The notes beneath the pieces were generated by a model that was given only the letters and a program-made list of their open reading frames with translations, had not been told where the DNA came from and made no database searches. From Lingula anatina (lineage: Eukaryota > Animalia > Brachiopoda), in NCBI GenBank assembly GCA_051362555.1, contig CM120642.1, forward strand, positions 4,278,001-4,342,000: 64,000 nucleotides of DNA. Direction: 5' to 3'. The translations under genes and the position numbers were made by a program. Shown here piece by piece: positions 33,131-60,464 of this stretch. How positions within the stretch are numbered: the first letter of the stretch is position 1; the number at the start of each line of letters is the position of its first letter.

Positions 33131-36100
33131 ATGCAGACGTCTGCAAGAGGTGAGTTCAAGCACCACCTGAGTAAACGGAGGTGTTAAATTTATACTTGGA
33201 TTTTTTTATGCCTATAGTACATAACAGGGGCGAATCCAGTGATATTTTTGACAGTCTTCCATACTATATTTGTTGACCCATCCTCCATTTTTTGACCGTC
33301 TTCCGACTGACAAAATAGATACCCATTAATGTAAACTTGAAAATCTGACCATCTTCCGGAAGACTCAGAAGACAGTCTAAATCCGCCCCTGCATAGGGCG
33401 CTTTCAGTCGGATCAGTGCAATAGAACCTGGATTTTCACAATTTCTGAACTGCACCCACATCTGTTAAATGTCGCTTTACCTAGGTCACACATTGTTATG
33501 AGTGTTTTTAAAATGGGTGTTTTATATTGCATTGTTGAAGACATTTTGTCTAAGTACAAGTACCGTAGATGACATCTATAGTTGACTGAAACCTGGATGT
33601 ACCTGCAAACACTTAAATGTACATCACCTCGAAGCATTTCGTCTAATGGGAGCTGAGACTGGTGGTGGGGGGAGGGGGGTCCGGGTTCATTGCACGCGTC
33701 GCTGATGCTTAAACCCCCTTTACACTGGACGGCGTACTTTCTGCGTCCATTCTGCGACCATGAAATTTGGCAACGCTCTGGTCTAAATAAGGAGGCACGA
33801 GCATTGATTCTGTAGCAGAATGAATGCTCAATGATCGGCCAGTTGTCGGCATGTAAAGTATTATTTTTTAACTCTCAAATGGGGCCGTACTGCTGGACGC
33901 AGAAAGGACGCCGTCCAGTGTAAAGGGGGCTTAAAGTGAAGCTCATACAAAGTCCTGCGTCTGCTCTATATAATATACCGGCGATATTCTATAGGTACGG
34001 GTTGGCTTGAAAGGAAATACACGTGTGCACACCGGCCCTTTGTGTAACAGGTACATGTATACTGAACAAAAATATAAACGTATGAAAGAATATGTTGATT
34101 TATTTTCATGTATGGAACTAGAGTATTTATCCAACAATAACAGCATATTTTCCTCAACAAATAGACATCACTTTGAGAGCATTACAGGAAGTTTAAAGGT
34201 ACATACGAACCGAGCATCGGTGGAGCGTGGATTCCCAGTAACACATGTAAACCACTTCTACTAGATTCTTATGTGACTCGAATTAATTCGACATGCCAAG
34301 GGATAAACTGAATAGATCACTCGATCAGCCATAAAAGACCTTTAGACTGCTCCTTTCTTTAAATTTTTGGTTGTAAATTTAACCTACCGGTACTTTCGTG
34401 ACCTACTTTCCTGCCCCATTGACATGCAGCTTAGAATGCCAGCAGAAATATCCGTTCAAACATCATTTTCGGGTAAAATTAAACATTGCCTTTTGGTAAT
34501 TCTCTTAGTTATACTACTTGAAACTATATGCTGGCATTTGGTTGGTTTTTGTGACCAAAAATTGACTTTGTATGCATCTTTGAATGCATAGTCCAAGAGT
34601 TAAACATCAACCTCACCATGGGGGTCAACATCCTGAGTTCACAGATACTAATAACGACTATGGCCACCAACTGACCATTTTAGTTTCGTGCGTTTATATT
34701 TTAGTTCAGTGTACATACGGAAACCTTTGCCCTGCCCGGAAAATTCTGTAGGAACAAATTAAAGGAATTAGTCTACATGTTATAATGCGTATTTAAGCAA
34801 AGTAAAGAAAAAATAATAAAAAAGAAGAAATTATTTTGCGAATACTGTCATCATAGCGAGTGTTGTTGTGTCTTTAAAAAACTTAAAGTTATAACGCTTC
34901 ACTTTTTATGATTTATGTTTCCACATGGGGTATTGAGTAAGAAGTTTTGAAGTTCCTTTACTAGTAAAAATTATGTTATTTACGTCGTCATTTATTTCAA
35001 GGTCCTCCTATATACATGTACTGGTACAATGAGGTTCTCTGCTGTACTCATCGTACGCTTGCTCACGACCCTAAATTTGCTCAATTCTAACAGTTGGTGT
35101 GCCGCCAGTCAATTATATCAAATTAGAAGGCTTTGAATTAAGTTTTATTCATTAAACAGAAAATTTAATACATTTTTCAGATAACAAACCTCTTTCTGGA
35201 AAGGTTGCCGTGGTAACAGGAGCCTCTAGTGGCATTGGTGCTGCCATCTCTCGTCAGCTGGCTGCTGCTGGTGCCAAGGTTGCCATGGCAGCAAGGCGGG
35301 AGAACTTGTTAAAAGAAATCCAGGATGAAATTTCAAAGGAAGGGGGCGTAGCTCTAGCAGTGAAATGCGATGTAACGAACAGAGCTGAGGTAAAAAGGGG
35401 GTAACATTGTATATGAACGAGATGCCAGTCGTGTTATATATGAATTGGGGCAGGAATTTTCGCTAATATTCGCGTTTGGTAATATTTATATAATTTTAAG
35501 AAATAAAACAGAGGAAAAGTTTTGTTCGGGATTAACGAGAGTTTGAGGGAAAGGCGGAGGGCTCTATGCGGCATCTTCCGGTAGTGTTCTTCAAAGTGAA
35601 AGCAACGTTGTTCTTTACATGGCAAGACAACGGTGTACGCTTATACCTTGTACCTGAATAGTGGGGGGCCTTAAAATGAAGTTGTCCAAAGTATTCTTAA
35701 AATGGTTAAATTGTTATTGATAATAATAATCTAAAAAAACTAGCATTGAAAGATGACAATACTAAATATCTCTGCGTAGGTGAAGGAGCTTATTCAGCAC
35801 ACAGAGAGCACCCTGGGTCCCGTGGATATCTTGGTGAACAATGCGGGTATCTGGGTGATAAGGTGTATGAAGAACCTTCACGAGGAGGAGTGGGATCAGC
35901 AAGTGGATGTGAACATCAAGGTAGGGCCAAAATGGGTTTTAAAGTACTGGCAGTCAGTAATTATCGACAATCCTCAAGTTTGGACTGGGACTGGTTTTTT
36001 GTACCATTTCAATTAAACATTGTTCTAAGCGAATTATTATATATTTAGAAAACCATGCTTCTTTCTTGCTGAACATGAAGGAAACGCCAACATAGGCTAT

Positions 36101-38033
36101 ATTTATTTGATGGTTATTTTCTAGTGTGAAAGTCTGAACTTGGAAAGGAACACTTGTAGACACGTATTTTTAGGCCATGTAGACAAGAGATGTGGCGTTA
36201 GAGCATTCTCAAATGTGTATAAACACCTTAAATACCTTACAGAATCTTTGCGAATCCTCTTCTACAGGGAGTATTGAACTGTATTGGAGCTGTGATCTCG
36301 GGGATGTGTGAAAGGAAAAGAGGTCATATCGTCAACATGTCGTCACAAAATGGAAAGACGGTAATAGTTAATTGTCAGCTCTCCCTTCTGTATGAAAAAT
36401 GCAAGTGGGACTCTCCGATTCAGTCAGAAAGCCTGTTGACCTATCAGTTTTCAGAGTTGCAAAAATAATCCTTGGTGATTTTCATCATTTTGTCACAAAC
36501 TTGGTTCACTTAGACCTATTTCGTTTAGTTAATCAGTTTGTTCTTACGTCCCTCATTCTGTAAATCAAAACAGCTGCAACTGTTCATTCAATAGCATTTT
36601 AACTTCAAAAAGTGCAAGGAACCTTGTCATCAAATATACTATTCAAACCCCAGTTAATTGTCATTTTTTATATTTATAGCACCACCGTTACCGCACTGAA
36701 ACAAATTCGACTAAACAAATTTTATATACCGGTAGTTACATGTACGTACGCTACACTGAAGGCAATGCACATGTAGATCGAGCTCTAATAGCTGCAACAT
36801 GAAATTTAAAGCGTTTTACATATTTGGATCAGACATGCTGCAAACCTTCACTTCAATTCAATTCTTTTGCAATGCACATTAATCTATTGCATATATTACT
36901 ATTATATTCCAGCCTTTGGTAGGGATAGCCGTATACACAGGGTCGAAGTTCTTCGTAGAGGGGATGTCACGGACGCTTCGTCAGGAAGTTTGCAAAGATG
37001 GCGTACGTGTTACTTGTATCCAGCCTGGCGAAGTTGAAACACCCGGTTTGGCCAGGTATTTAATGACAATGGAAGATGAACAGGTAAAACTTTTAAAGAC
37101 ATACTATGTCCACTAGATTTCTTATTGCCCCCTTTTAAAGTAAAAATCGATAATTGATCTACATGTACATGACATGCTACATCGTCAAATTAAATTAAGG
37201 GTTACAAGTTAATTTGCATTTGTTTTATAACCAGTGATTGTGCTACACTTATATGTATACGTTATGTCAGTGGTTGCATTGTTTATATCGTGTAAAGCAT
37301 AACAGAATTAAGAGAATTGGGGCAGCATACTGTACTGCAGATTAATTACATGTACACAAAACATGTGACAGTTGAAGGCTTCAGAAAACCGAAGAACTAA
37401 AATATCTCGTACCGTGCATATTAAGAGTGTAGGTTTTACAATACACTGTATCTTGCCATTTAATTAAAATGGTCGTTTGGGATTGTGAACGACTTAAACT
37501 GCGATTTCATGGCGCGAAAGTCAAAATACTTGCTGCGAGCACCGCAATATTTATTTCAAACGATTTGGTCAGCTTTAGATCGGGTCTGTCGCTGGTTATG
37601 TACGAAAACTGCACGCCAAGCTTTCAGAAAGTCTAAAATAGTAACAAATAGGATAAAGTAAAAGTAGATTCCATGAAATTTTGGTTTAGTAGTTAATTTA
37701 GAAGCCCGTGGCTCGAGATTACTAACGGCAATTTTTCTTTGTGAGGCCTAAATATCAAAATGGCATTTCGGCTGGCATTTGCTTCCGCGATTGTTTTGAT
37801 TGCAGAATAGATGAAGCAAATTCTCTTTGAGAAGAGCATTATAAAAACCAGTGACCTAGAGCGTGCAAAAAATATTATTATCATTTCAGTGTAAACAGCT
37901 GTACACTTACCCTCGCCCTTACCAAATTCTGGAACCTGAAGTCATCGCACAGGCAGTCCTCTACGCAGTCACGCAGCCGGAGCACGTGGCCATCAACGAG
38001 ATTCTTGTGCAGCCCAGGGAGGCCCCGCTGTAG
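33131..38033 (+). CDS. SDR copy B, classical NADP-type short-chain dehydrogenase (YdfG-like), 258 aa
   Basis: Exons 33131-33149, 35181-35389, 35780-35920, 36268-36360, 36913-37083, 37890-38033 (777 nt). Motifs [24 protein letters not shown] and QPG. Confidence 0.92.
33225..33391. mobile_element. Small MITE in SDR B intron 1
   Basis: TIRs CAGGGGCGAAT and ATCCGCCCCTG. Absent at the paralogous site near 48010. Confidence 0.7.
33712..33931. mobile_element. PIF/Harbinger-like MITE
   Basis: About 37-bp TIRs CCCCCTTTACACTGGACGGCGT... at a TTAA-like site. Absent in the paralogous intron near 60860. Confidence 0.8.
34193..34585 (+). repeat. Dispersed repeat fragment, inverted copy of 1633-2028
   Basis: Starts TTAAAGGTACATACGAACCGAGCATCGG and aligns with the reverse complement of 1633-2028. 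Confidence 0.75.
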
Positions 38034-39737
38034 TTCATACCACTTGTTTAGTGTTTGGTATCTAATTAGAAAGCGGTGTTAGCAACAAGATACATATTTG
38101 GGAATTATTATCGGTCATCATATTCAAGGGACTCGTACCTTGTTTGGAGCAAATGCCAAGACAAGTGGTTTTATAAACTAGATTTCTCTAAGGTACTGGA
38201 CTTCACATTAAATCAGGCAGTATATACAGTATTCTGCTTTCTTTCTGCTATATTAAACCTTTGGACTTTTTCGGCAATTCATTTGAACAGGTATGCTGTT
38301 GCGCGCGCTGCTACAATTTGCATAAAAGCATTAGACTTACCCTTTACCAGGGCCACAGATTGAATTTTCACTAGATATTCACAGATTATGTCGCTGGTTA
38401 AATATCGTCAATCTCCTAACTGGAAATGTGGAAAATGTGCATATAATATCCGCCACCCTGTATAACGGAGGCTCATATTGCAGTTGTATTCTTTTTATTC
38501 TTCCGTAAATACAAGTCATGATCTCCATTAGTTTAACAGTGAAAACGTTGATGTCTATACCCTTTACTGTAATCCTGTAATAATAAACAAATATAGTACT
38601 TAGACTTCGTTCGTTATTATTTTACCTTTCGTTGCGTTACAATCTAAGTATACTCATTAACTTGTTATACAGTTTTTCCAATAAGGGCTTTCGCTTACAC
38701 GCTTTCGCTTACACACTAAGTTATAAGACTTACTTCTAGGTTTGGACATTATTGTTACTTTTGCATTTTAAATTATTAGCCTTTAACTATTGTTATATAA
38801 TAAAAAAGATAGAATAAATTACCTTGACTTAAGAAATATCTGTTAAATGTGAAGCGCTCTTTTGCATGAAACCACATGGTTTCGGACATCTTATAACAAA
38901 AAAATAGTACCGGAAGAACAAAAATGACTGCGTTTTAACAATGTAAAAAATATATATATGTTTAACTGCAAAAATGTAAATAATGAAAACCAAAAGACAA
39001 TAATAATTTAAAGAAACACAATCACAAAGTGTAAAACATAAGTAAAGTAAGCTATCTTCGTGCAGAACTTATTTCCCGCGTAGTAAAATAAACGCAAACA
39101 AAAAATGCATACTTCCGTCGCAATCTTGTGAGAGCATCTATCGCAATCACTAACTAACATTACTGGCTGCAGTTACACACCCCCCCCAAAATCTATCTAA
39201 GATTTTTAACAACATTAAGAGTGCATTAAATTAAATATAATACCAAAAAAAAAAAAAAAAAAAAAAATCATTTCCAATGTAAAACTGGATCCAAAGATCA
39301 AGGAGTAAATGATAAACACAAAATAAACACTATTTGCTATCAATACATTAACCGCTGCATGTAAAGGTTATATGTTCTACCTTAATTTCCTTTATAACTT
39401 GTTGCTTAAGGTAAATCCACATGTCACCTTAATATAGTACACTAACATACTTTCTTACACCCATAACTCACCGTTCACGCCCTAGACCTATTGTGAAACT
39501 AGCTTTGTCTATTTTCCAAGTCACCGTGAAGACTGAGAACTAAAAATGAAATGACATTTTTTAAAGGATTCATGATCCAAGTTACCAACTCAAACAGTGG
39601 GAATGAATCCAAAAAATTTATATCCTACCTTAAACAATAAAACTCACAACATCAACATTCAAACTTAACTACAAGTTTTAAACAGTTAGTCATTGAGCAA
39701 CTCACTCACTTACAGTCCTAATTACATTCAGAGAGTA

Positions 39738-42700
39738 CTAACAACTTTCAATCAGAAGCACTAACTTCTGAATTGGTCTTTCTAAAATAACTGGCTTGGT
39801 TTCGCGTTTTCCCTGAGAATTTAAGTCATCAGTTCCTACACAAATCTTGGCCTTGCGCACTAATTTATCCTTGCTGGGAATACATTCAACCACTCTGCCT
39901 AGTGGCCAACTGTTTCGCGATACATTAGGTTCCACAACAAGAACAATATCTCCCACTGTGATGTTTCTCTTACATCTTGTCCAGCACTGTCTCTTGTTAA
40001 GATTCTGAAGATACTCTTTCCTCCATCTGCTCCAGAACTGTTGTGTGAGAAACTGAACTCTTCTCCATCTTTTCCTGAGATACATGTCCTGAGAAACAAA
40101 ATTTCCTGGGGGTGGTAGTGGCACACTGGATTTCATTGTAAGAATGTGATTAGGTGTCAGGGGCTCTGCACACTCAGGATCATTGATATTGGCTATTGAT
40201 AGAGGACGGCTGTTTACGATTGCCATTGCTTCATAAAACAGTGTGCGTAAAGATGAATCATCCAATCTACCTGGGCAGAGATTTATCACTCCTGCTAATA
40301 CATTCCTTATAGTACGAATCTGTCGCTCCCATACTCCACCAACATGACTAGAATGAGGTGCATTCATAAGAAAATCACAATCTTGATTGGCTAGGTAACA
40401 AGCTACCTTCTGAGCATCCATTTCCTTTAATGCAGCTGTGAATTCATTCCTTGCACCTACAAAATTGCTCCCTTGATCTGATCTGATCTGGCGAACTTTT
40501 CCTCTAATAGAAATGAAACATCTAAGAGCATTTATAAACGCATCTGATGACATGTCGTCCAGCATTTCAACATGCACTGCTCTAGAACATAAACAGGTAA
40601 ATAACAGACCATAGCGTTTGAACTCCTTCCTATTCTGTTTCACAATGAAAGGACCAAAGCAATCCATGGCACTATATTCAAATGGACATGATGCTTCCAC
40701 ACGATCAGAAGGCAAATCTGCCATTTTCTGCTCTTCCACTGGTTTTCTCATTTTCCTGCATGTAACACATCTGTGAATAATTTCAGATGTCAACTTCCCT
40801 CCAGCAAGGATCCAAAATCCATTGGCTCTGACTTCATTTAGAGTCATACCACGGCCCATATGACCAATGCGTTTATGAAAATGAGATACAATCAATTTTG
40901 AAACATAGCTATCCTTGGGTAATATTACTGGATGCTGAACAGAAAAGGCAAAACTTGATTGTCCTAGCCTTCCTCCCACACGAATTACTCCTTTATTGTC
41001 TTTAAAGGGGTTCAATGTTGAACTAGGAGGTTTTCCCTCGAACTTCTGTTCTTGAGCTAATTTTATCAAGAATGTGGTCGTTTCTTGCCTTTCCTCTTCT
41101 GAAGTGAGACTTGCATTTTTGATACCTCTTGCTCTTCTTTTGAGCCTTGCAATTGCTCTGACTGCTCTAGACCAATCTGAAAATTTCTCGAGTCTTTCTA
41201 TCATGGATTTCTTTTCTACTGTCTGTGTACTCCTTACAGAAGACATTTTGATCTCTGGGTCCATTTCTGGTAACTGTACATCATTGTGGGGCATGTCAGC
41301 CATCTCTAAATCAGGATTCCAAAGAAATCTTGGTCCTGTAAACCAGGTGGAGTCTCTCAACTTCTCCACTGACAAACCTCTTGATGCGTGATCTGCAGGG
41401 TTGTCTTCACTTCTTACATAGTGCCATTGCTGTGGGGAAGTTGCTTCTTTGATCAGCTGTACTCTGTTGGCTACATATATTTTAAATCTGTGTGTGTCAT
41501 TGTTTATGTAACCTAGCACAATCCTTGAATCTGTCCAAAAATAATGACGGTACTTCTCTGTCATCTCAGATTCAAGAACTTTGCTCATTTTGAGAGAGAC
41601 TACTGCAGCGTTGAGCTCCAATCTTGGTAGGGTGATAACCTTCAATGGAGTTACTCTGGCCTTTGACATGACAAGAGAACAATGTACTTCATTTTTCTCG
41701 TTCACAAGTCGTATATAAGAACATTGTCCATATCCAGATAAACTCGCATCAGAGAAATGATGAAGTTCTCTTCGCGTTACTGTTCCAAAGTTCTTTGGTA
41801 TAAAACACCGCGCCACCTTGATAGTTTGAATATCCTTCAATTCTTCAGACCATTTTTCCCACTGTGGCATAAGATCATTGGAAAGTTCTTCATCCCATGC
41901 AGAATTCTCTTTACACATTTGTTGCAATATCTGCTTCCCAATAAGAATAAATGGGGATAGAAAGCCTTGAGGATCATACACGGATGCCACTGCAGATAGC
42001 ACTCCCCTGCGTGTTTTTGTCTTGACTTCACTGGTAAAAGCTCTGTACTGAAAAACATCATCTTCTACATTCCACTGTAATCCCAATGCAGTGGAAACTG
42101 GCAATCTGTCTTTATTCAAATCCACACCATTCACCTCTGTAGCACGCTCAGACTCTGGGACCGTTTCTAATACCTCCCTGCTATTGGACAAGAACTTGTG
42201 CAATCGTATGCCTCCACTGGCACACAATTTCCTTGCCTGATCGATAATCTGAATGGCGGTATCTGCGTCATCAGAGCTGGTCAAACCATCATCAACATAG
42301 AAGTGATGCTTAATAAATTCTGCTGCCAATGGGTATTCATTCTCATAACTTTTAGCAAGATATTTCAAACCAAAATTGGCACAACCAGGCGATGAAGTAG
42401 CCCCAAAAAGATGTACTTTCATCCTGAATACTGTTGGCTCCTTGGTAATGTCACCATTTTTCCACCACAGAAATCGCAGGTAATTTCTGTCGTTATCTTG
42501 CACTAGGAATTGATGAAACATTTTTTCAATATCACATGCTACTGCCACTGGGTGTTCTCTAAATCTAATCAAAACTCCTAGAAGGCTACTTGTTAAGTCG
42601 GGACCACTTAGCAAATGCTGATTAAGTGAGGTTTGTTTGTAAGTTGCAGAACAATCAAATACCACACGAAGTTTTCCTTTCTGTGGATGATAAACTCCAT

Positions 42701-45676
42701 GATGTGGCAAGTACCATACTTCTCCTTTAATGGTATCATCTGGAGCTTCTTCAGCCTCACCTCGGTCTATAATACCTTGCACCATGCTCGTGTACGATTC
42801 ACGATAACTTGGATCTCGCTCAAACTTGCGTCTCAGATGATCAAGGCGTTGGAGTGCCTGGGACTTGTTATCAGTTAGAGCTGGTCGTCTTCTGAATGGC
42901 AATGGCATCTGAATGTGACCATTATCCAACTGCTGTATATTGGTTTCTTGTACTCTCAAAAACTGCAAATCTTCTTGAGACATCTCAACTTCGGTCTTGT
43001 CGTGAACAAAATCCTTTTCTAAGGCATTAATAACGTCTCTTGGCATACAAGGAAACACCTCCTTTGTCGTCACACGGTGACAAACTGAAGCTAAGTTATC
43101 TCTTGAAGAGCAGCCAACAATACTCCACCCAAGTATAGTCTGCACTGCATATGGCTCACTATTTCCACCAACTAGGGTATCTCTGGGTAGCAGTGCTCGT
43201 GGACAATTAAAACCTATGAGTAAACCCACATCACAAGTCTGTAGGGGAGGAATCTTGTTCAAAAGAGGCTTTAGATGTTGCCAGTCTGTTACAGTTTTTC
43301 TCGTAGGAATTTGTGTTCTGTCAGCTGGTATAAACTCCCTAGTGAATGCTTGATCAATCTCCAATGTCTCAGTAGACTTGAATCCTCTTACTCGCAATCT
43401 TCTGATTTTCTTGCTGTCTATGAGGGACTTTTGAGTTGACATTGTTGATAAACTAAGTGTGGCATGCTCTGTTTCAGCATTTAAAGCAGCAGCCGTATCT
43501 TCTAATAAAAATGTAGTGTCACTCTGTGTATCTAAAAGTGCATAGGTCAACACCTCATGTTCTGGATTTTCCTGTGTAGACACCCAAACAGGCACTATCA
43601 TGGTGGTGCTACTCTGACGGTGATGCTGATTGACTTTGAGAGAATTTACGCTTTGGGTTTCTCTGCTGGTAGGTGGCTGCCGTTCTTCATGCATGCAGGT
43701 TGGATGCTTGCCCTTACAGGTACCACATACATGTTTTCTTCTGCAGTCACTGTTTCTGTGTCCCTGTCCTAAACATCCAAAGCACAAATTCTTTTTCACC
43801 ACAAACTCCCTTTTCTTGGATATCGTTAAAGCGCCAAAGTCATGACATCTAGAGATATAATGACCTTCTTTCTCACAATATGTGCACAATTTTTTCTCTG
43901 CTACACCAGCATTAACATTTAGAGCTCTGACCGTATCATGCACCTTGTTCACCAATGGAGAGGTAATGGGATTGCAAGCCACTTCTGATTCTTCCGACAG
44001 GAAAGCACAAAAGTCACGAAAGGAGGGGTAGCCTTCAGTTTTCATAGACCTTGTCACTTGACGATTCCATCTGTGTGATACAAACTGTGGTAGCTTGTTA
44101 ACCATTTTCCTGTTTTCACTATAATCGTTCAAAACTGTGAGTCCCTTGACGTGCGGCATGGCATCACATACAGCATTCAGAAAGTCTGAGTAGTCTCTGA
44201 GTGCATTTCCATCTTTTTCTGGAATCTTTGGCCATTTATCTAGCTTTTCTCTGAAAGACTTCTGTATCAGGAACTCATCTCCAACCTTTCGTTCAGCTTT
44301 CTCCAGGCATCATCAAATGCTGCTTCATCTGTTCTTAAGAAAGCTCCCTGAATCATTTTAGCAGCAGGCCCTGCTGTATACTTCCTTAGAAAAAAGAGTT
44401 TCTCAGTAGCATTGAGGGCTTTTCTTCCAATTAAGACAGAGAAGGAGTTCTTCCATTCAGGAAACAGCAATGGATTACCTGCAAATACCTTTGGTTCTGG
44501 AACAGGTAGGCGTCCTAAAGACAAACTCTGTTGAAGAGCTTCTGTTAAACCATCGAGGGAAACTGCTGGCGTGTGATCAGTTGTGGCCATAGGCGTAGAG
44601 ACTGCATGCATGTGTGCAGTTGTAGCTATGGGCACGGAAACATCAGGTGCAGACAGGGAAACTGAGGGTACACGCACAGCTGCAGTCACAGGTAGGGAAG
44701 TATAGACAGATGTAGTCGCAGGCACGGACATCACATGTGCATGAACAGCTGTAGTCGCTGACAGGGGAACCTCAGGTGTTGAGGCAGCTGCAGACACAGG
44801 CGCGGAAACCTCAGGCGTGTAAACAGCTGTAGTCACAGGCAGGGAAACTGAGGGCACGCGCACAGCTGCAGTCACAGGCACGGGAACCTCAGGTGTTGTG
44901 GCAGCTGCAGACACAGGCACTGAAACCTCGGGTGTATAAACAGCTGTAGTCACAGGCAGGGAAGCTGAGGGCACGTGTACAGCTGCAGTTGCAGGCAGGG
45001 AAACATCTGTTGTGTATGCTTCTGTAGTCACTGGTAGGGAAACTGAGGGCATGTGTATCTTGTCAAACTCATTTAAAGCATCAATTTTAGCCTGAGATAC
45101 ACGTAAACTAGTCTGCATTTCTAAATCCTCCTCTTTAAATTTCAATTCTAACCTTGCTCGCTCCAATTCCTGCTTGACTTTCATGGCTGATGCACGAATG
45201 CTCAACTCGGCTTGTTTCTGTGCTTCCTCCAATTTCAAAAGACTTGACGTTGAGGAGCCACGAGAATTGGTTCTTGATCTGGTACTGACTGATTTAGAGT
45301 CTTCAGTGTGCTCAGTAACTGATGATAAATTCTGCTCCATAATTCTCTTGAATTCCAATAATATTTTTCTGCGAGGCTCATCAATAACTGCTGAGTCAGA
45401 ATGGCTTTGTAATTTCAACAAATTATCTTCAATTTCAAAATATTGGTCACAATTCTGCAACCATTCTGCATATTCTTCTCTGAGTAATGTCTTGCTGCCG
45501 CCTTCTTTAATTATGGCATTGCACCGTTCCATAATTTTTGACAGTTCTCCAAAGAGTCGCTTACATCTTTTACCTTGTATCTCAACAGAATATTCCTTTC
45601 CCTTTTCTGTCATCGTTACAGTTCTTTTCTTCGTTAGGGAATTGGTTGACTCGTTTTCACTATAACGGAGGCTCAT
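39738..45676 (-). CDS. BEL/Pao gag-pol polyprotein split by a 1-nt frameshift near 44283
   Basis: Three Cys-His knuckles (CTYC..H..C, CFGC..H..C, CGTC..H..H), ALLDTQS protease, FYVDD RT, HHFSDAS RNase H (ITLPRLEL), integrase (DCFGP, SDQGSNF, GVWER) and C-terminal ERPIQKL. Restoring one base joins the 469-aa and 1473-aa ORFs through NERFGDEFLIQKSFREKL. Confidence 0.93.
44560..45050 (-). repeat. 39-bp coding minisatellite (13-aa S/T/P/A/V units) in BEL gag
   Basis: About 13 units such as SLPVTTAVYTPEV, SVPVSAAATTPEV and PVPVTAAVRVPSV. Confidence 0.9.
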
Positions 45677-47911
45677 ATTGCAGTTGTATTCTTTTTATTC
45701 TTCCGTAAATACAAGTCATGATCTCCATTAGTTTAACAGTGAAAACGTTGATGTCTATACCCTTTACTGTAATCCTGTAATAATAAACAAATATAGTACT
45801 TAGACTTCGTTCGTTATTATTTTACCTTTCGTTGCGTTACAATCTAAGTATACTCATTAACTTGTTATACAGTTTTTCCAATAAGGGCTTTCGCTTACAC
45901 GCTTTCGCTTACACACTAAGTTATAAGACTTACTTCTAGGTTTGGACATTATTGTTACTTTTGCATTTTAAATTATTAGCCTTTAACTATTGTTATATAA
46001 TAAAAAAGATAGAATAAATTACCTTGACTTAAGAAATATCTGTTAAATGTGAAGCGCTCTTTTGCATGAAACCACATGGTTTCGGACATCTTATAACAAA
46101 AAAATAGTACCGGAAGAACAAAAATGACTGCGTTTTAACAATGTAAAAAATATATATATGTTTAACTGCAAAAATGTAAATAATGAAAACCAAAAGACAA
46201 TAATAATTTAAAGAAACACAATCACAAAGTGTAAAACATAAGTAAAGTAAGCTATCTTCGTGCAGAACTTATTTCCCGCGTAGTAAAATAAACGCAAACA
46301 AAAAATGCATACTTCCGTCGCAATCTTGTGAGAGCATCTATCGCAATCACTAACTAACATTACTGGCTGCAGTTACACCCTGGCAAAGGGTACATTGGAG
46401 TGATGATTTTGCAGCTGCATTGCGCGCAGTGCTGCAGAATTTTACAAACTGGTTGGACAGGTAAATTGGTCAATTTTCGACCAGAAATTTGATGAAGGTA
46501 GAGTTTTAATGCTACTTTTTGGCTGAACGAGGGGTTACATTGGATTATGACTTGGCATGTCGACTTTATTTTAGCTCTATAATAATACTACTAGTGATAA
46601 TAATTATAAGCTTTTTATATGGCGCCTTACAATAATGGATAGTATAACTGAAATTGTTAAAATGACTAAATTTTTTTAAATCGTAAACACTCATTGGAAA
46701 CGATTTAAAATTAACACTACTAATCTTATTAAAATATATAAAAAATCTAAGATATGTAGAAAGATTTAAAAATGTGGGTCTTTAGAAGTGATTTAAAATT
46801 GTCTTCTGCTTTTCTAATAAAATTTAATGAAGTAAAGATGTTTTAAAATTATTCGTATATGCGTTATTTGAATTCACGCTCGCTTAATATGAAACTTTAT
46901 CGTAAAGACAAGGTAAAATATAAGTGGCTTAACACACATCCTCTACTTAAGACCTCCGGGAAAGCGTTTTGTCAATAGCGCCCTATTGAGAACGCTCAGG
47001 TAATATCAGACTTTAAAACGAACTGTGCGTTTTCGAACTCAAGCCTTAGATTTGTGAGCACGAACGTCCAAATTAATGGCTAAAACCAAGCTTTCATGGT
47101 ACGAATGCGAAATTACTGGCTACGAGCAATATGCTTCAATCCACAAACCTTTAATCCGTTCGGCAGTTTCCGTACGTGCCGGGGATTGTCGACAGCGCAT
47201 TACTTCCGTATTGATAAGCAGTATGGATGGTACATTACCGGTAGACTAAAGAAACATTAGTTTGATTGGTTTTGAGCCTTTTTTTATTTTTCATTTATTT
47301 TCCCCGGTACATTTCAATCTAATGTAGTTTCTCATAACTTATTTTCGCTGATTCAGTTGGTCTTCATATTTGCTTCTTAGCCATTAAGGTTTTGTCTCAT
47401 GAATTTCCGAAAATAATGTGAAGTCGCTGCGACGTTTGCGTCTGCTCTACCCTTTTAAAGTGTGTTGCACAAAACAATCACATCGCTTTCAGTTTGTTAC
47501 TAAATTCTTGTAACACGTGTAATTTAATACACATGTAATTTAATACTGTACTTGCACTTAGTCATACATACATACATGCACGTATTGAATTGAAATTGAT
47601 ATCCAAATTAATTTTCAATACATTTTATTATTATTATTATTATTATTATTATACAAGTAAGCTGATCACGTTCACATTGTTGTTTTTAATCCAACAAGTT
47701 CGCGCTTAATTCTTTGTTCGTGTGACAAAACATGGGAATTTGGTTACAATTATATAACTTCTGATTGCTGTTCTTAAGCGCCCTCTAGCGATGATTTAGA
47801 AGCAACGCATGATGTGTTTATCAACCACAATAGGGTGACCTGGCAAGTACGGGGCATTGCATTCTAGCAGAGGAAATCATATATTTAAGTTGAATTGCAA
47901 TATTCTTTAGG

Positions 47912-50900
47912 ATGCAGTCGTCTACAAGAGGTGAGTTCAAGCACCACCTAAGTAAACGGAGGTGTTAAATTTATACTGGTAGTTTTGATATGCCTACAAA
48001 ATGTATAGTACATGAGGCGCTTTCAGTCGGATCAGTGCAACAGAACTTTGATTTTCACAATGTTTGAATATCGCTTTATCTAGGTCACACATTATTATGC
48101 GTGTTTTTATAATGGGTGTTTCATATTGCATTGTTGAAAACATTTTGTCTAAGTACATGTAGATGGGGTCTATAGTTGACTGGTTTTTTGTTAAAATCTC
48201 TTAAGAGATTTTAACTGACGGAGCCCTCTTTGACTCTGCATAGTCACGCGATATCGAGCGAGATTTTATGGCGACCTACTTAAAACCGCGCGAAAAGCAG
48301 ACAACAACAACACTTTATAACAATAATATTAGATTCATAAGATATATTCGTCTTATTGCTCAAAATGCATTAATATCTACAATATGTGCAGTTCTGGACT
48401 TTTCGTTATCCAACGCACTGTACAAAACTCGCGACTTGCGTCTGAGGATTGCATCACGCGTCTGCTTTCAGGCCGTTATCTGAAGCCTGAGAGATGTTGT
48501 TTAACTCCCACATCACGCGGCTGGAAGTTTGATTCAGAACTAATATAATGGAGTATTTTGCCACCGGAATCCGCGGAGTTCCTTCCACGAAAGCTGCACA
48601 AGAATGGTGTTCAGTTTCAAACACCCGCACAACGCGTAGGGTAAAACATGGCGGTGCCTAGGACGCATTGTCCAATCATAGTAAGAAGTTTCGAAGTTCC
48701 TTTACTAGTACAAATGATGTTTTTTACGTCGTGTTCATCAAGGTCCTCCTATATGTATGTACTAGTGCATAGAGGTTCTCTGCCGTACTCATTATACGCT
48801 TGCTCACGACCCTAAATTTGCTCAATTCTAACAGTTGGTGTGCCGCCAGTCAATGATATCAAATTAGAAGGCTTTGACCAAACAGATGATAACAGAAGTT
48901 AACCAGAGTGAAATGCAGATGGCGTTGAGTGTGTTAGTTGTCCAATTGCAGTGGGCGGTAGTTTTACGGAACATATTTAAATTACTCAATTGGCCTCAGC
49001 CAGTCGTTAGCCTAAGAGGGTTAACCTCACAAGACTGAAGTACAGGTACATTGAGAATTTTTGATATTGCACACAGTACCCTAAATAATATGAACAGCGA
49101 CCTTGGCCTCCTTTGTCAAAAATATGCGTAATATGAAATAAAGCACAGGTGCTAAGCTGATTTATCTCCCCTATTTCTTTAGTCTTCATCCAGTCGGGGC
49201 ATATTACGTAAGCTCAGCACCTGTGCTATACTTTATTTAATGCCAGAAATATCAAAATTCAACGTAATTCTGTCTTGGAATTCCTAGCTGTTGAGCTGAG
49301 TAGCATGAACTACAGAAAATGGCAATGTGTCACCGGAAGGATGGAAGTAAAAAACACAAAACGAAGATTCTGCAGTGCTGCCTTTTTCCGATATTGATGT
49401 AACATATATATATATATATGAGGTTGCGTATGTATGATTGTGGTTGTGTTAGTGTAGTGTGTTCGTGCCTTTTTGTTTGTGTTCGTTCGTCTCCGTTTCT
49501 TTATATACGTAACACGCCCCTCTTTCTTAAGCCCCTATTTCACACAGACCACGAATCCCACGAATGGCCATGAATTGACAAATTTCACGATTCGTGGTTG
49601 AATCGTAATCAGTTCGTGAAGTTCTTAACAGATTCGTATCTATTCGTAGTCAGTTCTTGCACTTCTTGACCAACAGGAATTGGTGGCAAAATCTTTGATG
49701 CCCCTATTTCACACAGACCACGAATCCCACGAATCGCCAGGAATTGAAAATTTCAGGATTCGTGGTTGAATCGTAATCAGTTCTTGAAGTTCTTAGCAGA
49801 TTCGTATATAATCGTAGTCAGTTATTGCAATTCTTGATCAATTCGTGGCAAAAAATTTGAGCTGTTCAAAGTTTTGGCCACGAACTCTCGATTCCAAAAA
49901 AATCGTAGTGAATTTTCTGGACAATATTCGTGCGATTCCAACCGAATCCCACGAATATTCGTAACACTATCGTACCTGTATCGTAACTGAATCGTGAGCG
50001 TCGAATTCGACCAGAAAATTGGCAAAATCTCACGAATCCTCACGAATCCTGAAATTTGTCAATTCCTGGCGATTCGTGGGATTCGTGGTCTGTGTGAAAT
50101 AGGGGCCTTACGCGGCACATTCGTTTCTCGTTTCTGCCACGTCAACTTACAGGTGAGATAGACTTGATTGGTTTGCTTTTCATTTTCTTTGTGTTAAGAT
50201 TTTGTATTTCTTTAAGTTATTTTGTTTGATATTTTCAGTGCTTGTTCTTTTCATCCTTATATTGTTTAGAAGTTTAGTTTAATCATAAAAATAAGTATAA
50301 TTAGTTCATAAATGTTGTTCACGTAAATATTTCTATGTAAGTTCAGTTCTGCATTAAGTTCTTTTTGTTTATTTGTAAAGTATTAATAAGACATACGTTT
50401 CTCGTTTCTGCCACGTCAACTTACAGATTAAACTCGGGTTCTTAATAAAGTACAGTGAAAGCTGTTACATTGATAGGGTGGTCTTTGTCTAATGAAATAA
50501 GTTTTATTCATTAAACAGAAAATTTAATACAATTTTCAGATGACAAACCTCTTTATGGAAAGGTTGCCGTGGTAACAGGAGCCTCTAGTGGCATTGGTGC
50601 TGCCATCTCTCGTCAACTGGCTGCTGCTGGTGCCAAGGTTGCCATGGCAGCAAGGCGGGAGAACCTGTTAAAAAAAATCCAGGATGAAATTTCAAAGGAA
50701 GGGGGCGCAGCTCTAGCAGTGAGATGTGATGTAACGAACAGAGCTGAGGTAAAAAGGGTGTGGCATGTGTATGAATGAGATGCCAGTCGTGTTATGAATT
50801 GGGGCAGGAAATTTTCAATAAGATTCGCGTTTGGCAATATTTGCATAATTTCAAGAAATAAAACAGAGAAAAAGATTTGTTTGGTATTAACGAGAGTTTG

Positions 50901-53900
50901 AGGGAAAGGCGACGAGTTCTATGCGGCATCTTCCGGTACAGTTCTTCAAAGTGAAAGCAACGTTGTTCTTTACATGGTAAGACTACGGTGTACGCTTATA
51001 CTGTACCTTGTACCTATTTAGTGGGATCCTTAAAATTAAATTTTTAAAAGTATTCTTAAAATGGTTAAATTGTTATTGATAATAATGATCTTAAAACCAA
51101 GCACTTAAAGAGTACAATTCTAAATATCTGCGCGCAGGTGAAGGAGCTTATTCAGCACACAGAAAGCACCCTGGGTCCCGTGGATATCTTGGTGAACAAT
51201 GCGGGTATCTGGGTGATAAGGTGTATGAAGAACCTTCACGAGGAGGAATGGGATCAGCAAGTGGATGTGAACATCAAGGTAGGGCCACCGTGGTTTCCAG
51301 AGTGTACTGGCAGTCACCAATTATTGGCAATCCTCAAGCTTAGAATGGGATTGGTTGTTTTGTACCATTTCAATTACACAAGCGAATTATTATTTATTTA
51401 GAAATCCATGCTTCTTTCTTGCTTAACATGAAGGAAACGCCAACATAGACTACTTTTATTTGATGGTAATTTTCTAGTTAGAAGGTCTTACCTTGGCAAG
51501 GTTCACCCGTAGACACGCATTTTAGGCCATTTAGACAAAAGATGTGTCGTTGGAGCATCCTCAAATGTGTATAAAATCTTTGATTTTTCCAAAAAGCATC
51601 TGTCAGAATTTTCTTATTCAGGGGGTGTTGAACTGCATTGGGGCTGTGATCTCCGGGATGTGTGAAAGGAAAAGAGGTCATATCGTCAACATGTCATCAC
51701 AAAGTGGAAAGACGGTAATAGTTAATTGCCAGCTCTCCCTTCTGTATGAAAAATGCAAGTGGGACTCTCCGATTCAGTCAGAAAGCCTGTTGACCTATCA
51801 GTTTTCAGAGTTGCAAAAATATTCCTTGGTGATTTTCATCATTTTGTTTCAAACTTGGTTAACTTAAACCTATTTTGTTTAGTAAATCAGTTTGTTCTTA
51901 CGTCCCTCATTCTGCAAATCAAATCACCTACAACTATTCATTCAATAGCAATTTTACTTCAAAAAGTGCAAGGAACCTTGTCATCAAATTCATACTGTTC
52001 AAAACCCAGTTACTTGTCATTTTTTATATTCATAGCACCACCGTAACCGCATTGAAACAAATTCGTCTAAACAAATTTTATATACCAGTAGTTACGTACG
52101 CTACACTGAAGGTAATGCACATGTAGAGCTCTAATAACTTCATGAAATTTAACGCGTTTTACATATTTGGATCAGACATGCAGCAAACCTTCAATTTAAT
52201 TCAGTTCTGTTGAAATGCACATTAATCCATTGCATATATTACTATGACATTACAGCCTTTGGTAGGGATAGCCGTATACACAGGGTCGAAGTTCTTCGTA
52301 GAGGGGATGTCACGGACGCTTCGTCAAGAAGTTTGTAAGGATGGTGTACGTGTAACATGTATCCAGCCTGGCGAAGTTGAAACGCCCGGTTTCGCCAGGT
52401 ATTTAATGACAATGGAAGATGAGCAGGTAAAACCTTTGAAGACATACTATGTCCACAAGATTTCTTATTGCCCCCTTTTAAAGTAAAATGACATGCTTTA
52501 AAATAAAATGACATGCTACATCAATTTATCGTCAAATTAAATTAAGGGTTACGAGTTAATTTGCATTTGTTGTATAACCAGTGATTGTGCTACACTTATA
52601 AGTATACGTTTCCTCAGAGGTTGCATTGTTTATATCGTGTAAAGCATGACAGGATCTAGAGGATTAAGCAGCATACTGCACTGTAGATTAAGCACATGTA
52701 CACAAAACATGTGACAATTGAAGGTTTCAGAAAACCGAAGAACTATCAATATCTCGTACCGTGCATATTCAGAGTGTAGGCTTAACAATACCTGGCCTTT
52801 TAGACAAATTGGTCGTTTAGGATTGCGAATGGCGGTTTGTGATTATGAACGCCGAATTATAGACTTGAGCTGCGATTTCATGGTGCGAACGTCAAAATAC
52901 TTGCTGCGAGGACCGCAATATTTATTTCAAACGGTTTGGTCAGCTTTAGATTTGGTCTCTCGCTGTTCAAGTACGAAAACTGCACGACAAGCTTTCGGAA
53001 ATTCCAAGTCTAAAATAGTAACGAATAGGATAAAGTAAAAATAGTTTCCTTAGAGGACCGTGGTTTAGCATTTGATATGATAACCATGGAAATACGGCAG
53101 TTTTCAATAAAATTTTCAAAGCAAAAATCTAAACAACATAGAGAAAATGAAAGAGACATTTGGAAAAAAATCAACGCGCTACAAGCCGAGATAGACAATC
53201 AATTTAATAAAGAAAAAGCTAAAGAATTAGAAAAACTTAAGACTGAATATGATTTAATCTTAGAAGCTAAAACTGAAGGTGCAATAATGCGCAGTAAAGT
53301 GAGATGGTACGAAAAGGGCGAACGCAATACAAATTACTTTATCAACTTGGAAAAACGGAATCGGGTCAGAAATACAATTACAAAACTAGAAATTAATGAT
53401 ACACTAACAGTAACTAACGATAAAGATATTCTACAAGAACAGGAAAAGTTTTATGAAAATTTGTACACCTCACAGAACACTACCTTTAACGAGAGAATCT
53501 CAAACAAATTTTTCAATGTACAAAACATACCCCAAATTCCAAACGACCTAAAAATCGCATGTGAAGGAAAGCTAACCATCAACGAGTGCAAAAACGCACT
53601 CAAAGAACTTACAAAAAAGAAGAATAAAACCCCGGGTGTCGATGGGCTCTCCGCAGAATTTTACATGAAATTCTGGGAAGAATTAGGAGAGGAAATGGCA
53701 GACTGTTTAAATTTTGCTTTTGAAACTGGTCAGTTAAATATTAGCCAACGGCAGGGCATAATAACACTAATTCCCAAAAAAGACAAGGATAGACACCGTT
53801 TGGAAAACTGGCGACCTATTTCTTTGCTAAGCGTAAGCTACAAAATAGCCGCAAAAGCACTTGCAAAACGAATGGAAATGACTTTACCAACCATTATCAA

Positions 53901-56797
53901 CAAAAACCAAACCGGGTACGTTAAAAAAAGATATATCGGTGAAAATATAAGACTCATCTGGGATCTTATGTACTCAACAAAAAGGCAAAATAAAGAAGGG
54001 ATGGCAATTTTCTTAGATTTTAAAAAAGCGTTCGATTGCATTGAATGGGAATTTATAAAAAAATGCCTGAAAATATTCAACTTTGGCCCTGACTTCATTC
54101 AGTGGTTTGACATTATGTACGCCAATGCTTCCAGTTGTATTACAAACAACGGATATTCCTCGCGATTCTTTTCAATTACAAGAGGTGTAAGACAAGGATG
54201 CCCACTGTCCGGCCCTTTATTCGTGCTGGCCGTAGAAATACTAGCCTGCGCAATACGCGCAGATCCATCCATACGGGGAATTACTATTGATCGTCATGAA
54301 CACAAATTATGCCAATATGCCGACGATACAACGCTATTTCTAAATGATGTTGGGTCCGCTAAAAACGCATTGAAATTAATATCTGAATTCAAACAAATTT
54401 CTGGTTTAGAACTAAACTTGAGCAAGTCCGAAGCCCTGTGGCTTGGAAGCAATAGATTCAACGACGAAAAGCCCCTCGGGTTGCTATGGCCGGATAGACC
54501 AATAAAAGCTCTCGGAATTCATTTCTCTTACGATTACGAAAGCTGCAGGTTTCTAGACTTCGATAGTAAAGTTGATCAAATTGAAAAGCTGCTTAACCTT
54601 TGGTCCAGCAGAGACCTCACATGGATTGGAAAGATACAAATACTGAAAACATTGGGTCTGGCTAAACTGGTTTATGCTAATACAGTTCTTGAGACCCCAA
54701 ATGATATTATTTTGAGGATAGATGCTTCATTCAAAAAATTTCTATGGAATGATAAAAAACCAAAATTAAAGCAAAATACATTAATAGCCCCAAAGAGTAA
54801 AGGTGGTTTAAATTTGACGCATGTGCCATCGCACGTGCGGTCTCTGAAGGCCTCAATGGTTAAGCGCATAATGTTAGCTGACAACGATGATCCGTGGGTT
54901 ATAAACATACTGAAATATTTAAGAAGTGTGGGAGGAAAACTTATTTTCAGTTGTAATTATGAACTGAAGAATATTAACATTTCGGACATACCACCTTTTT
55001 ACGTAGCCATGCTAGATGCATGGAGTAATGTAATACAAACAGACCCTAATAATGCCTCCGATATAAAGAAACAGATAATATGGAATAATAGATTCATACT
55101 TGTAAACAAAAAGTCAATATATCTAAGGCATTGGTCAAAAGCCGGAGTAAATTATATGCAAGATATTATAAATATTAATGGTGAATTTATATCATTAGAA
55201 GAAATAATAAATCAACACAACTTCGACATTAAGCTGCCGAATTTTCTAGAATACGAAAAAGTAAAAAAAATCAATTCCGATATCATGGTTACGTAAACTT
55301 CGGGAAAATGCAGAAACAGTTGACAACACAGACTCAGATGAGATAGTATGGACTCTAGCCTCTACAAAAACCATTTACGATAAGCTAATAGAAAGAAATG
55401 TAATAAATTTACCCACAGCAAGTTTGCATCTTATCAAATCAGGCGTAAGTGAAAATGATTGGCAGAGAGTTTTCTTGATACCATTTGAGTCTGTCAAAGA
55501 AACTCAACTACAAATAATGCAATACAGAATAATTCACAATGTGCTGTACACAAATTCTACACTGTTCAAAATGAAAATAGTTACTAGCCCAGGATGTATT
55601 AACTGCCATATGAAAGAAACAATAATACATCGTTTTGTAGAATGTGTACGTGCAAGAAATTTTTGGATTGCATTTGAAAACTGGTGGAACATTCCGAATA
55701 ACACCATACACTTCAGAAAAAATGAAAAAACTATAATGTACGGGTGTCTGTCAAGCGACCAGCGCGTAAAAGCTTTAAATTTCTGCATTATTGTGGCTAA
55801 ACAATTCATAAACAAAAATTCAGAAAATCCATCAGTCTATGATTTTGAACTGTTTCTGCATTTTCTTAGTCAGAAGAAGAAAATAGAAAAATACATTGCT
55901 ATAAAGACAGGAAAAGAAGACAGGTTCAATACAAAATGGAAACGCATTCCTACCATAACGTGTTAAAATTTTCACCTCTAGTACGCTATAGTTGCCGTTA
56001 TGTAGTTCACAACAAGCATGTATACGTGTAGTATGTATGGACGGATGAGTGAGTGAAAGTAAGTCTATATATTTATGTTCTTATTTATTTATCAGTATTT
56101 AATTACCGTAATTATTATCAGTATCATATGCATTTAATCTTTGATTTTCTGTCTAAATATTTCATTATATATGACATAGTTGCCGAGATGTAGCTCACAA
56201 CAAGCATGCATACGCGTAGTATGTATGGATGGATGAGTGAGTGAGAGTAAATCTATATATTTATGATCTTTTTATTTACCTATTAGTATTTAATTACCGT
56301 AATTATCACCAGCATTGTATTACATGCATTCAATCTTTCAATCTTTGATTATCTTTGTATATTTTCTTTTTTCTTTTTTTTTGAGTGAATAAATGCAATA
56401 AATAAATAAAAAAAAAAAAAAATAGTTTCCATGAAATTTTGGTTTAGTAGATAATTTACAAGTCCGTGGCTCGAAATCACTAACAGCAAATTTTGTTTGT
56501 GAGGCCTAAATATCAAAATGGCATTTCGGCCAGCTGGCATTTGCTTCCGGGAAGGTTTTGTTTGCAGAATAAATGAAGCAAATTCTCTTTGAAAGAAGCA
56601 TTATAAAAACCAGTGACCTAGAGCGTGCAAAAAAAATATTATTATCATTTCAGTGTAAACAGCTGTACACTTACCCTCGTCCTTACCAAATTCTGAAACC
56701 TGAAGTCATCGCACAGGCAGTCCTCTACGCAGTCACGCAGCCAGAGCACGTGGCCGTCAACGAGATTCTTGTGCAGCCGAGGGAGACCGCGCTGTAG
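47912..56797 (+). CDS. SDR copy C, intact reading frame, 258 aa
   Basis: Exons 47912-47930, 50540-50748, 51138-51278, 51622-51714, 52256-52426, 56654-56797. Exon sizes and motifs match copy B. Confidence 0.92.
48184..48670. repeat. Insertion beginning with a T-run and a perfect 26-bp palindrome (possible Helentron/HINE-type fragment)
   Basis: GTTAAAATCTCTTAAGAGATTTTAAC at 48190-48215. Sequence is absent from the paralogous introns of copies B and D. Right boundary is approximate. Confidence 0.45.
49398..50469 (+). mobile_element. Solo LTR interrupted by a MITE
   Basis: Ends TGTAACA and TGTTACA. TTGA TSD at 49394-49397 and 50470-50473. Empty site GATATTGATAGGGTGG at about 61490. AATAAA at about 50444. 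Confidence 0.8.
49530..50107. mobile_element. PIF/Harbinger-like MITE with a duplicated left end
   Basis: Long TIRs GCCCCTATTTCACACAGACCACGAATCCCACGAAT. TTA TSD. The left end is repeated at 49700. Confidence 0.85.
53050..56417 (+). mobile_element. 5'-truncated L1/Tx1-clade non-LTR retrotransposon in SDR C intron 5
   Basis: 13-bp TSD AAAAATAGTTTCC at 53037-53049 and 56418-56430. AATAAA plus poly(A) tail. Empty site in copy B at about 37655-37680. Confidence 0.95.
53077..55966 (+). pseudogene. LINE ORF2 (RT and C-terminal zinc finger), lacking the endonuclease, with one +1 frameshift
   Basis: Motifs RWYEKGE, NKTPGVDG, NWRPISLL, DFKKAFD, GVRQGCPLS, QYADD and CINC..ET..H...C. One extra A in the run at about 55263-55270 separates the two ORFs. 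Confidence 0.92.
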
Positions 56798-57258
56798 ATC
56801 ATACCACTTGCTTAGTGCTTGGTATCTATTGTGAAGCGGTGTTAGCAAAAAGATACATATTTTGGGATTCTTCTTTGTATCTGTCGTCATATTCAAGGGA
56901 CTCGTACATGTACATGTACCTTGGTTGGAGCAAGTGCCAAGACAAGGGCTTTTATAAACTAGATCTCTCTAAGCTACTGGACTTCACATTACATCAGGCA
57001 GTATATACCCCTGTACATTATTCTGCTTTCTTTTTGTGCAATTTTAAACCCTTGATCTTTTTGGGAGATCCATTTGAACAAGTATGCTGTTGCGCGCGCA
57101 GCTACAATTTGCACCCATGCATTACCAGGGCCATAGATAGAATTTTCACTAGATATTCACAGATAATGTCGCTGGTTAAATATCGTCAATCTCCTAACTG
57201 GAAATGTGAAAATTGTGCCTATAATATCCGCCACCCTGACAGAGGGTACATTAGAGTC

Positions 57259-57401
57259 AGGCCCGCAGCCAGCATTTTCAAAAGGAGGGTTCTTTTTCTG
57301 AAAAAATGTACCTAGATCAAATTTTACCCCCAGAGTGGACCTTTCCCAGCAAAAAGGGCGATTCTTTTGAACCCCCCCCCCCCCCTCCCGGCTACGGGCC
57401 T
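57259..57401. mobile_element. Small MITE
   Basis: TIRs AGGCCCGCAGCC and GGCTACGGGCCT. Absent at the paralogous site near 46400. Confidence 0.7.
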
Positions 57402-57639
57402 CAGATTGGTGATTATAATGCAGCTGCAGTGCGCGCGCAATACTGCGTCATTTAGCAGAATTTTACAAACTGGATGGACAGGTAAATTGGTCAATTTTCG
57501 ACCAGAATTGTGATGAAGGTACAGTTTGAAAGCTCCTTTTTGGCTGAACGAGGGGTTACATTGGATTATGACTTGGCATGTCGACTTTATTTTAGCTTTA
57601 TAATGATACTACTACTACTACTACTTTTAATAATAATAA

Positions 57640-57670
<31 letters not shown>

Positions 57671-57889
57671 CTTTTTATAAGGCGCCTAACATGCTACCTC
57701 AAGGCGCCTTACAATGATGGATAATATAACTAAAATCATTAAAATAACGACAATATTTAAATCTAAAACACTCATTGGAAACCATTTAGAATTAACACTG
57801 CTAATCTTATTAAAATCTATATTTAAAAAATCTAAGAGATATAGATAGATTTAAAAATGTGGGCCTTTAGAAGTGATTTAAAATTGTCA

Positions 57890-58032
57890 GCCAAGCGGGC
57901 AACTTATGTTTAAACAACGTTGAACCATAACATTGATAAGACGTTGGATAAACGTTGGATTTGAAAGTTGGATCAACGTCAGATAACAACATTGTATCAA
58001 CCCCAGTTGTTAGACAACATTCTTGCATGAAA

Positions 58033-58088
<56 letters not shown>

Positions 58089-60172: not shown

Positions 60173-60205
<33 letters not shown>

Positions 60206-60464
60206 ATACAAGTAAGCTGATCACGTTTACATTGTTGTTTTTTAATCTAATAAGTTCACGCTGTGACAAAACATGGGAATTTGGTTACAGTTTTATTACT
60301 TGTGATTGCTGTTCTTCGGCGCCCTCTAGCGATGATTTACAAGCAATGCATGATGTGTTTATCAGCCCCAACAGGGTGACCTGGGAAGTACGTACATGTA
60401 CATGTAGCATTGCATTTTAGCAGAGAAAATCGTACATTTAAGTTAACTTAAAGTACTCCTTGGG

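Follow-up and report, generated by a model that had tools for sequence, protein, structure and literature searches.

The window analysed here is a 64,000-nucleotide (nt) stretch of the genome of the brachiopod Lingula anatina (GenBank assembly GCA_051362555.1, contig CM120642.1, positions 4,278,001 to 4,342,000 of the forward strand), and it contains on its minus strand a BEL/Pao long terminal repeat (LTR) retrotransposon that, judging from its sequence, probably primes its own reverse transcription from the LTR stretch 45747-45739. We observed that no TGG follows the 5' LTR of this element, that the LTR holds an exact complement of the nucleotides that do follow it, that the pairing is in register with the LTR edge, that site and complement co-vary family by family among relatives, and that splice signals accompany the complement where it is split. 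With somewhat less assurance, we favor a broader proposal in which a wide clade of BEL/Pao elements of aquatic animals builds its primer by splicing an intron out of the LTR, with host splicing licensing replication; the intron would have disappeared or moved on several occasions, leaving the window element as one of the ready-made forms.

At the primer-binding position, the minus strand just past the 5' LTR (45660-45652) reads GTGAAAACG; this site abuts the LTR end without a gap and lacks TGG, as a preliminary description of this DNA had reported. The predicted self-primer arm, an exact complement of these 9 nt, is found on the same strand within the LTR at 45747-45739, its end 78 nt short of the LTR end. 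The stem is 10 bp long when the last LTR base is counted (45652-45661 with 45738-45747) and 12 bp with one G:U pair, the three extra bases (45736-45738) pairing with the last three bases of the LTR in this element only. These coordinates agree with those first described, as does the position of the poly(A) signal AATAAA (45694-45699, starting at 45699 on the minus strand), of which the LTR has a single copy; it lies in the loop of an inner stem-loop (45664-45729, minus strand) between the arm and the LTR end. In 20,000 dinucleotide shuffles of the LTR, the chance of a 9-nt match was 0.0036 anywhere and 0.001 in the last 200 nt, and that of a 10-nt match was 0.0015 and 0.00025, respectively. 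The stretch 45747-45640 is predicted to fold into one long hairpin (-27.7 kcal/mol) that leaves off about 40 nt ahead of the Gag ATG, with a z score of -4.6 that none of 200 shuffles equaled and that is inflated because the ends were picked on the repeat. No GT-AG joint in the window LTR extends the 9-nt match, and a search of 45500-46400 against Rfam gave no matches.

Sequences from the same organism also bear on this stem. Over 45661-45783, a contig from run X10, which represents a diverged subfamily, shows 13 substitutions and 3 gaps relative to the window. Of the nine substitutions that are listed, three fall in a bulge beside the 12-bp stem and none in the stem itself, two turn an inner-stem U-G into A-U, one breaks a pair, and three are unpaired. 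The pattern in this partial list is suggestive of a conserved 12-bp stem. The RNA data, which cover 4 of 9 runs and 6 to 25% of the reads of each run, gave 46 reads; these contain no joints and no pile-ups of starts or ends and are too few to map a start. One RNA read that ends near 45777 and has a spliced look is consistent with plain read length.

We compared the window junction with those of relatives from a metagenome scan, in which the best 80 of 456 matches yielded 77 loci in 46 families. The 5' junction was readable in 31 families, giving 32 junctions with the window. The 15 families omitted were L065, which has little LTR and a junction resembling that of L075, and 14 in which no junction could be read because the contig was cut or the upstream DNA was unrelated, among them L041, in which a TGG lies in a duplicated tract that could not be placed. 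TGG is absent from the first 6 nt of all 32 junctions and no alternative primer site was seen at any of them; all 32 open with GT, and 27 different 11-mers occur among them. Four families with 63 to 207 nt of upstream DNA (L003, L007, L028, and L062; best matches of 3, 4, 8, and 6) were dropped before co-variation was counted, leaving 28 families with enough LTR: the window and 27 metagenome relatives. No relatives of the window element were found among 101 candidate viral contigs.

Across these 28 families, changes in the site that follows the LTR are accompanied by changes in its LTR partner. When a match was scored as contiguous or with one GT-AG joint inside the LTR, the match to a family's own LTR reached at least 10 nt in 23 of 28 families (mean, 10.5), compared to 16 of 756 cross-family pairs (mean, 5.6), or 8 of 742 once pairs sharing their first 9 nt are set aside; leader sequences starting with GT, used as a control, reached this length in 5 of 292 cases. 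The site thus tracks its own LTR in the very comparison that the preliminary description had proposed as a check. All matches pair in register with the LTR edge, and perfect cores cluster at 10 to 12 nt. A G directly follows the arm in 21 of 26 families, and a T, able to pair with the last A of the LTR, is found at this position only in the window. By comparison, a Ty3/gypsy element in the same window (4502-11497), which has a TGG site, shows a self-match of only 3 to 6 nt. A blind scan of all positions with free GT-AG joints was discarded as a test, as it gives 10 to 13 nt by chance. In the same organism, record 2 of run X1 matches 45659-45722 and 45817-46103 and represents a sister family in which the 94 nt holding the arm are exchanged for 114 other letters and the LTR is followed by GT and then a different sequence; this is possibly a within-species case of co-variation.

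That the match arose by chance, in an element with a decayed true primer site, is hardly credible on these data. With joints allowed, 5% of cross pairs do reach 9 nt, and the window copy has a frame change, but the contiguous match has a probability of 0.001 to 0.004, the two LTRs are identical, the same site occurs in contigs from other samples, and its position and ...AC ending are as in relatives; the co-variation across 28 families largely refutes this explanation. Priming of the window family by a host tRNA half, as half-tRNAs do for some copia groups, is quite improbable. The anticodon arm of animal tRNA-Glu(UUC) would complement about 8 of the 9 site bases. In addition, the window and 18 others of the 32 sites fit a loose anticodon-loop rule, the window arm is short, and half-tRNA priming is known (available part of PMC6317226). 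Against this, the rule is lax for A-rich sites, 13 of the 32 sites fail it, and a tRNA half leaves unexplained both the tracking by each site of its own LTR and the splice joint. ARAGORN, applied to the window and to 30 of the 77 loci, found no tRNAs.

The pairing could instead be a regulatory structure at the 5' LTR, acting in translation, packaging, or poly(A) control and switched by splicing, with something else serving as primer. The AATAAA in a hairpin loop and the end of the long hairpin about 40 nt before the Gag ATG would suit such a role, and priming by the arm is itself read from sequence. We consider this unlikely, given the lack of any other primer site at the 32 junctions, the LTR-edge register of all matches, and the poor conservation of the inner hairpin, which has a z score of -2.4 in the window compared to a mean of 0.0 over 22 families, with values below -1 in only 2 of the 22. 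A U5-IR stem-loop beside the primer duplex is reportedly required in the self-priming yeast element Tf1, and the inner stem-loop of the window element, a possible counterpart, is not general among relatives. Because the inner hairpin is not conserved and the distance from arm to LTR end varies from 58 to 543 nt across families, no fixed fold is required. The same two features are compatible with a primer supplied in trans by a separate short LTR transcript of the same or a sister family rather than by a genomic RNA whose own 5' end folds back, and further LTR copies, solo or other, are present in the organism. This version is highly improbable: the cis fold is the minimum-energy state in the window element, and strict matching within each family suits priming in cis at least equally well.

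Self-priming from the LTR, the reading we prefer, takes a distinctive form in most relatives. In 20 of the 28 families, a match of at least 10 nt is found only across a GT-AG joint, and the arm is split by the predicted intron at the position equivalent to 45746/45745. The predicted introns are 80 to 329 nt long, apart from two of 1.2 to 1.3 kb and one that runs across two contig pieces. The two long introns, in L016 and L053 (1,321 and 1,227 nt), lie in LTRs of about 1.7 to 2.1 kb, which exceed the 1.2 kb given by the International Committee on Taxonomy of Viruses (ICTV). Only GT and AG had been required of the joints, and GTRNG donors are found at 13 of the 20 split joints compared to 132 of 1,581 background sites (p = 7e-10); a pyrimidine precedes the AG in 20 of 20 compared to 50%, and there are T-rich tracts, with a T share of 0.55 compared to 0.33. 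When AG was swapped for other dinucleotides, at most 9 families reached 10 nt, compared to 21 with AG.

Five families have ready-made arms: the window (9 nt), L071 (9 nt), L020 and L042 (11 nt each), and L026 (10 nt, which can also be read as split). The sisters L020 and L022 have introns placed 7 nt apart that give the same spliced sequence, and these introns (L020:4290-4330 and 4660-4690; L022:6170-6190 and 6400-6430) have no BLAST similarity to each other; in L042, a donor-like site lies 1 nt past the ready-made arm. At the sequence level, this pattern resembles what intron sliding, or loss followed by regain, would leave. In a tree of the relatives (480 columns of reverse transcriptase [RT] and RNase H, 41 rows, midpoint root with the root position assumed), L020, L026, L071, and L042 each fall within starred groups that hold split families. 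Thus, provided that the split state came first, ready-made arms have had at least two separate origins. The branch of the window element is long (0.61) and attaches at an open fork, placing its nearest kin outside the sampled loci.

Several observations weigh against self-priming or against the splice-built form of it. The window match is only 9 nt, below the 10 to 14 nt of most relatives, and its duplex extends 3 bp past the LTR edge, which is seen in none of 25 relatives; the extra structure of the window element (three extra pairs and a stable inner hairpin) may offset the short arm. The LTR end was set by eye from an ...ACA|GT motif in 21 of 28 families. It is independent, with a 3' copy that runs into flank, only in the window and six families, and of these seven, five reach 10 nt, the window reaches 9, and L076 reaches 7. 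Besides the window, the families below 10 nt are L045 (5 nt; its arm is truncated where the contig begins), L076 (7 nt), L017 (9 nt), and L071 (9 nt); the LTR of L017 is packed with tandem copies, and the L076 miss amounts to one change, its sister copy L055 having a matching arm. Moreover, L003 and L062, with about 200 nt of upstream DNA each, lack an arm (best matches, 3 and 6), 37 of 756 cross pairs reach 9 nt, including the window site against L049, and broad extra pairing is no better than in cross pairs (p = 0.51). The donor half of the splice signal is weak alone, with 13 families still at 10 nt when TT replaces GT (the maximum among GT swaps), compared to 21. The p values are overstated because the families share ancestry, and the variant list behind the run X10 pattern is partial, with 60 further rows existing.

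The sequence data also address where the RNA starts. The preliminary description placed the start at 45747, in the exact geometry of Tf1; in this special case of self-priming, the split relatives would have first exons of only 3 to 8 nt, and first exons of this size would be unusual. A start at 45747 is disfavored because the split partner, found in 20 of the 28 families, needs an RNA start upstream of the splice donor, and the 250 nt above 45747 contain no TATA(A/T)A. In tests devised after seeing the data, 10 of 25 own pairings had a second helix of at least 4 bp located 1 to 6 nt above the core, compared to 55 of 600 cross pairs (in the window, it is 3 bp only), and 17 of 25 families had an AGT 10 to 36 nt upstream of the core, compared to 106 of 268 background windows. 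Thus, from the second helix, the AGT, and the intron-split relatives, an RNA start above 45747 appears more likely. In the window, candidate features on the minus strand are an AGT at 45768-45766, 21 nt above the arm, as a putative start region; a T-rich tract with CAG acceptor-like sites (45766-45795), for which the first exon base would be 45774 or 45766; and three donor-like GT sites (46022, 45933, and 45825, within 45820-46022), which could define an LTR intron that would leave the arm whole.

The exact Tf1 geometry is therefore a minority possibility, though not a negligible one. The primer of Tf1 is the first 11 nt of its RNA, for which cleavage is reported in the accessible part of PMC7175516, and a short primer copied whole into the next site would give a sharp limit; because the sharp 10- to 12-nt cores resemble this length, a start at 45747 keeps some weight. 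Of the model first put forward, priming without tRNA has gained from the co-variation over 28 families, whereas its Tf1 geometry lacks support; it contained no link to splicing and gave no weight to the run of the duplex 3 bp past the LTR edge, which sets this element apart from relatives.

We propose that replication of the window element by self-priming would proceed as follows. The RNA would begin within the LTR, probably somewhat above 45747. In most relatives, splicing would unite the two halves of a 10- to 14-nt primer, while the window arm would be ready-made, probably through loss or a move of that intron. A nuclease, which on the model of Tf1 would be the RNase H, would cut after 45739 and free the primer, whose 3' end at the LTR edge would allow synthesis of minus-strand DNA from 45661 to about 45738. 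This DNA would then transfer to the 3' copy of 45738-45680, and plus-strand synthesis would copy the primer into the primer site of the next generation, so that arm and site would stay matched. The 3' LTR copy would normally be unspliced; if it were spliced, an intron-less LTR like that of the window would result.

The element spans 7,917 bp (38461-46377, minus strand). Its 717-bp LTRs (5', 45661-46377, TG...TA; 3', 38461-39177, directly preceded by a G-run polypurine tract) show no mismatches, and CAGGG flanks the element on both sides as a 5-bp target duplication; the identical LTRs and this duplication indicate a recent insertion. Reads from other runs and DNA contigs from four runs cease matching the window at 45659-45661, which supports an LTR end at 45661. 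Both window LTR copies end at the right (45661 and 38461) in TA instead of CA, unlike those of relatives; three flanks adjoining this end (the window and two same-organism sequences) begin with CA, and two further loose ends do not.

The first reading frame (44267-45613, minus strand; 448 amino acids [aa]) encodes the N-terminal part of Gag from an ATG 48 nt past the LTR and overlaps by 43 nt (44267-44309) with a second frame (39738-44309, minus strand; 1,523 aa) that contains three Cys-His boxes, a protease motif, RT, Peptidase_A17, and integrase. Gag is thereby spread over two overlapping frames, through either damage or a programmed shift, while most protein homologues are single proteins of about 1,900 to 2,000 aa; the Gag frame also contains a 39-nt tandem array (about 44650-45057) of about 10 units that are 65 to 88% alike. 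In the second frame, Pfam identified Peptidase_A17 (PF05380; E = 1.7e-45) and DUF5641 (PF18701; E = 1.1e-24), as well as RVT_1 (residues 545 to 704) followed by rve (1212 to 1300), both slightly below the Pfam cutoff. The Cys-His boxes, at residues 142, 176, and 195, lie ahead of the protease motif and form the triple pattern of BEL/Pao elements given in the available text of PMC554778; the third (CX2CX3HX4H) agrees with Sinbad/Pao and disagrees with Suzu. The closest protein match is 99% identical and named Lingula anatina, and the next closest (53 to 58% identical) are from fish, molluscs, echinoderms, hemichordates, and a frog.

We assigned the element to BEL/Pao by its protein features, taken as defining in place of the primer site: it has a Pao-type Pol, with Peptidase_A17, DUF5641, and RT before integrase. 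Membership in the Tf1/sushi group was ruled out, as the Pol is not that of a Ty3/gypsy chromovirus. The LTRs fall within the 0.2 to 1.2 kb of BEL/Pao, with polypurine tract and target duplication present and a right end of TA, not CA. The element thus resembles the ICTV family Belpaoviridae in LTR size, in Gag-Pol domains and their order, and in its polypurine tract (PMC8742986). ICTV describes an 18-nt tRNA-Arg or tRNA-Gly site and tRNA priming for this family (PMC8742986); in contrast, a TGG site is missing from the window element and from 31 related families.

Other repeats surround the element. The Ty3/gypsy element at 4502-11497 (minus strand) is also young, with a TGG primer site that we take to be tRNA-Leu-like and two degenerate copies of this site in its LTR end. 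A long unit occurs about three times at 85 to 94% identity (33000-38400, 46400-53000, and 56600-62300), and interspersed with its copies are the BEL/Pao element and an RT gene of LINE-like type (53029-55966).

Within the literature searched, descriptions of self-priming are confined to Ty3/gypsy and some copia groups: it is reported for the Tf1/sushi group and Tcn1 (Ty3/gypsy) and proposed for TAR, Houba, and Osr-1, according to the portions available of PMC6317226, PMC4600332, PMC7175516, PMC5443660, PMC6934838, and PMC3601003. Like Tf1 and Tf2 of Schizosaccharomyces pombe, Tj1, Tf1/sushi elements, and Tcn1, the window element has no tRNA site and has a site complementary to its own 5' LTR, which is about 11 nt in those elements (PMC7175516, PMC4600332, and PMC6317226, in part). 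Unlike Tf1, it belongs to another superfamily and is known from sequence alone, and 20 of its 28-family set have an intron-split primer, a feature not reported for Tf1 in those portions. Self-priming predicted from sequence outside Ty3/gypsy also has a parallel in the TAR lineage, Houba, and Osr-1, which are plant Ty1/copia elements for which the available text of PMC6317226 mentions no splice link. The fungal GalEa "conserved hairpin site" and biv-TRIM likewise lack a canonical tRNA site, with inverted repeats of 9 to 10 bp proposed instead, but both arms lie in the internal domain (PMC6934838, available sections), whereas the window element has one arm within the LTR and the second directly next to the LTR end. 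A term search found no "PBS" (primer-binding site) in the main text, as available, of three BEL/Pao surveys (PMC3118150, PMC554778, and PMC6238403), and PMC8220671 mentions it in general terms only in its accessible part. No paper title addressing BEL/Pao self-priming, or a primer made by splicing in this group, turned up in a search short of most subscription papers, Repbase, GyDB, and supplements.

BEL/Pao replication has been described as tRNA primed and poorly understood (PMC8742986). If a large part of BEL/Pao self-primes, then self-priming spans all three LTR superfamilies; such elements would evade control exerted via tRNA supply or tRNA fragments, and LTR finders that rely on tRNA would overlook their primer site. 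A splice-made primer would couple replication to the host spliceosome, and the split and ready-made sister forms provide a natural contrast in which this coupling is testable.

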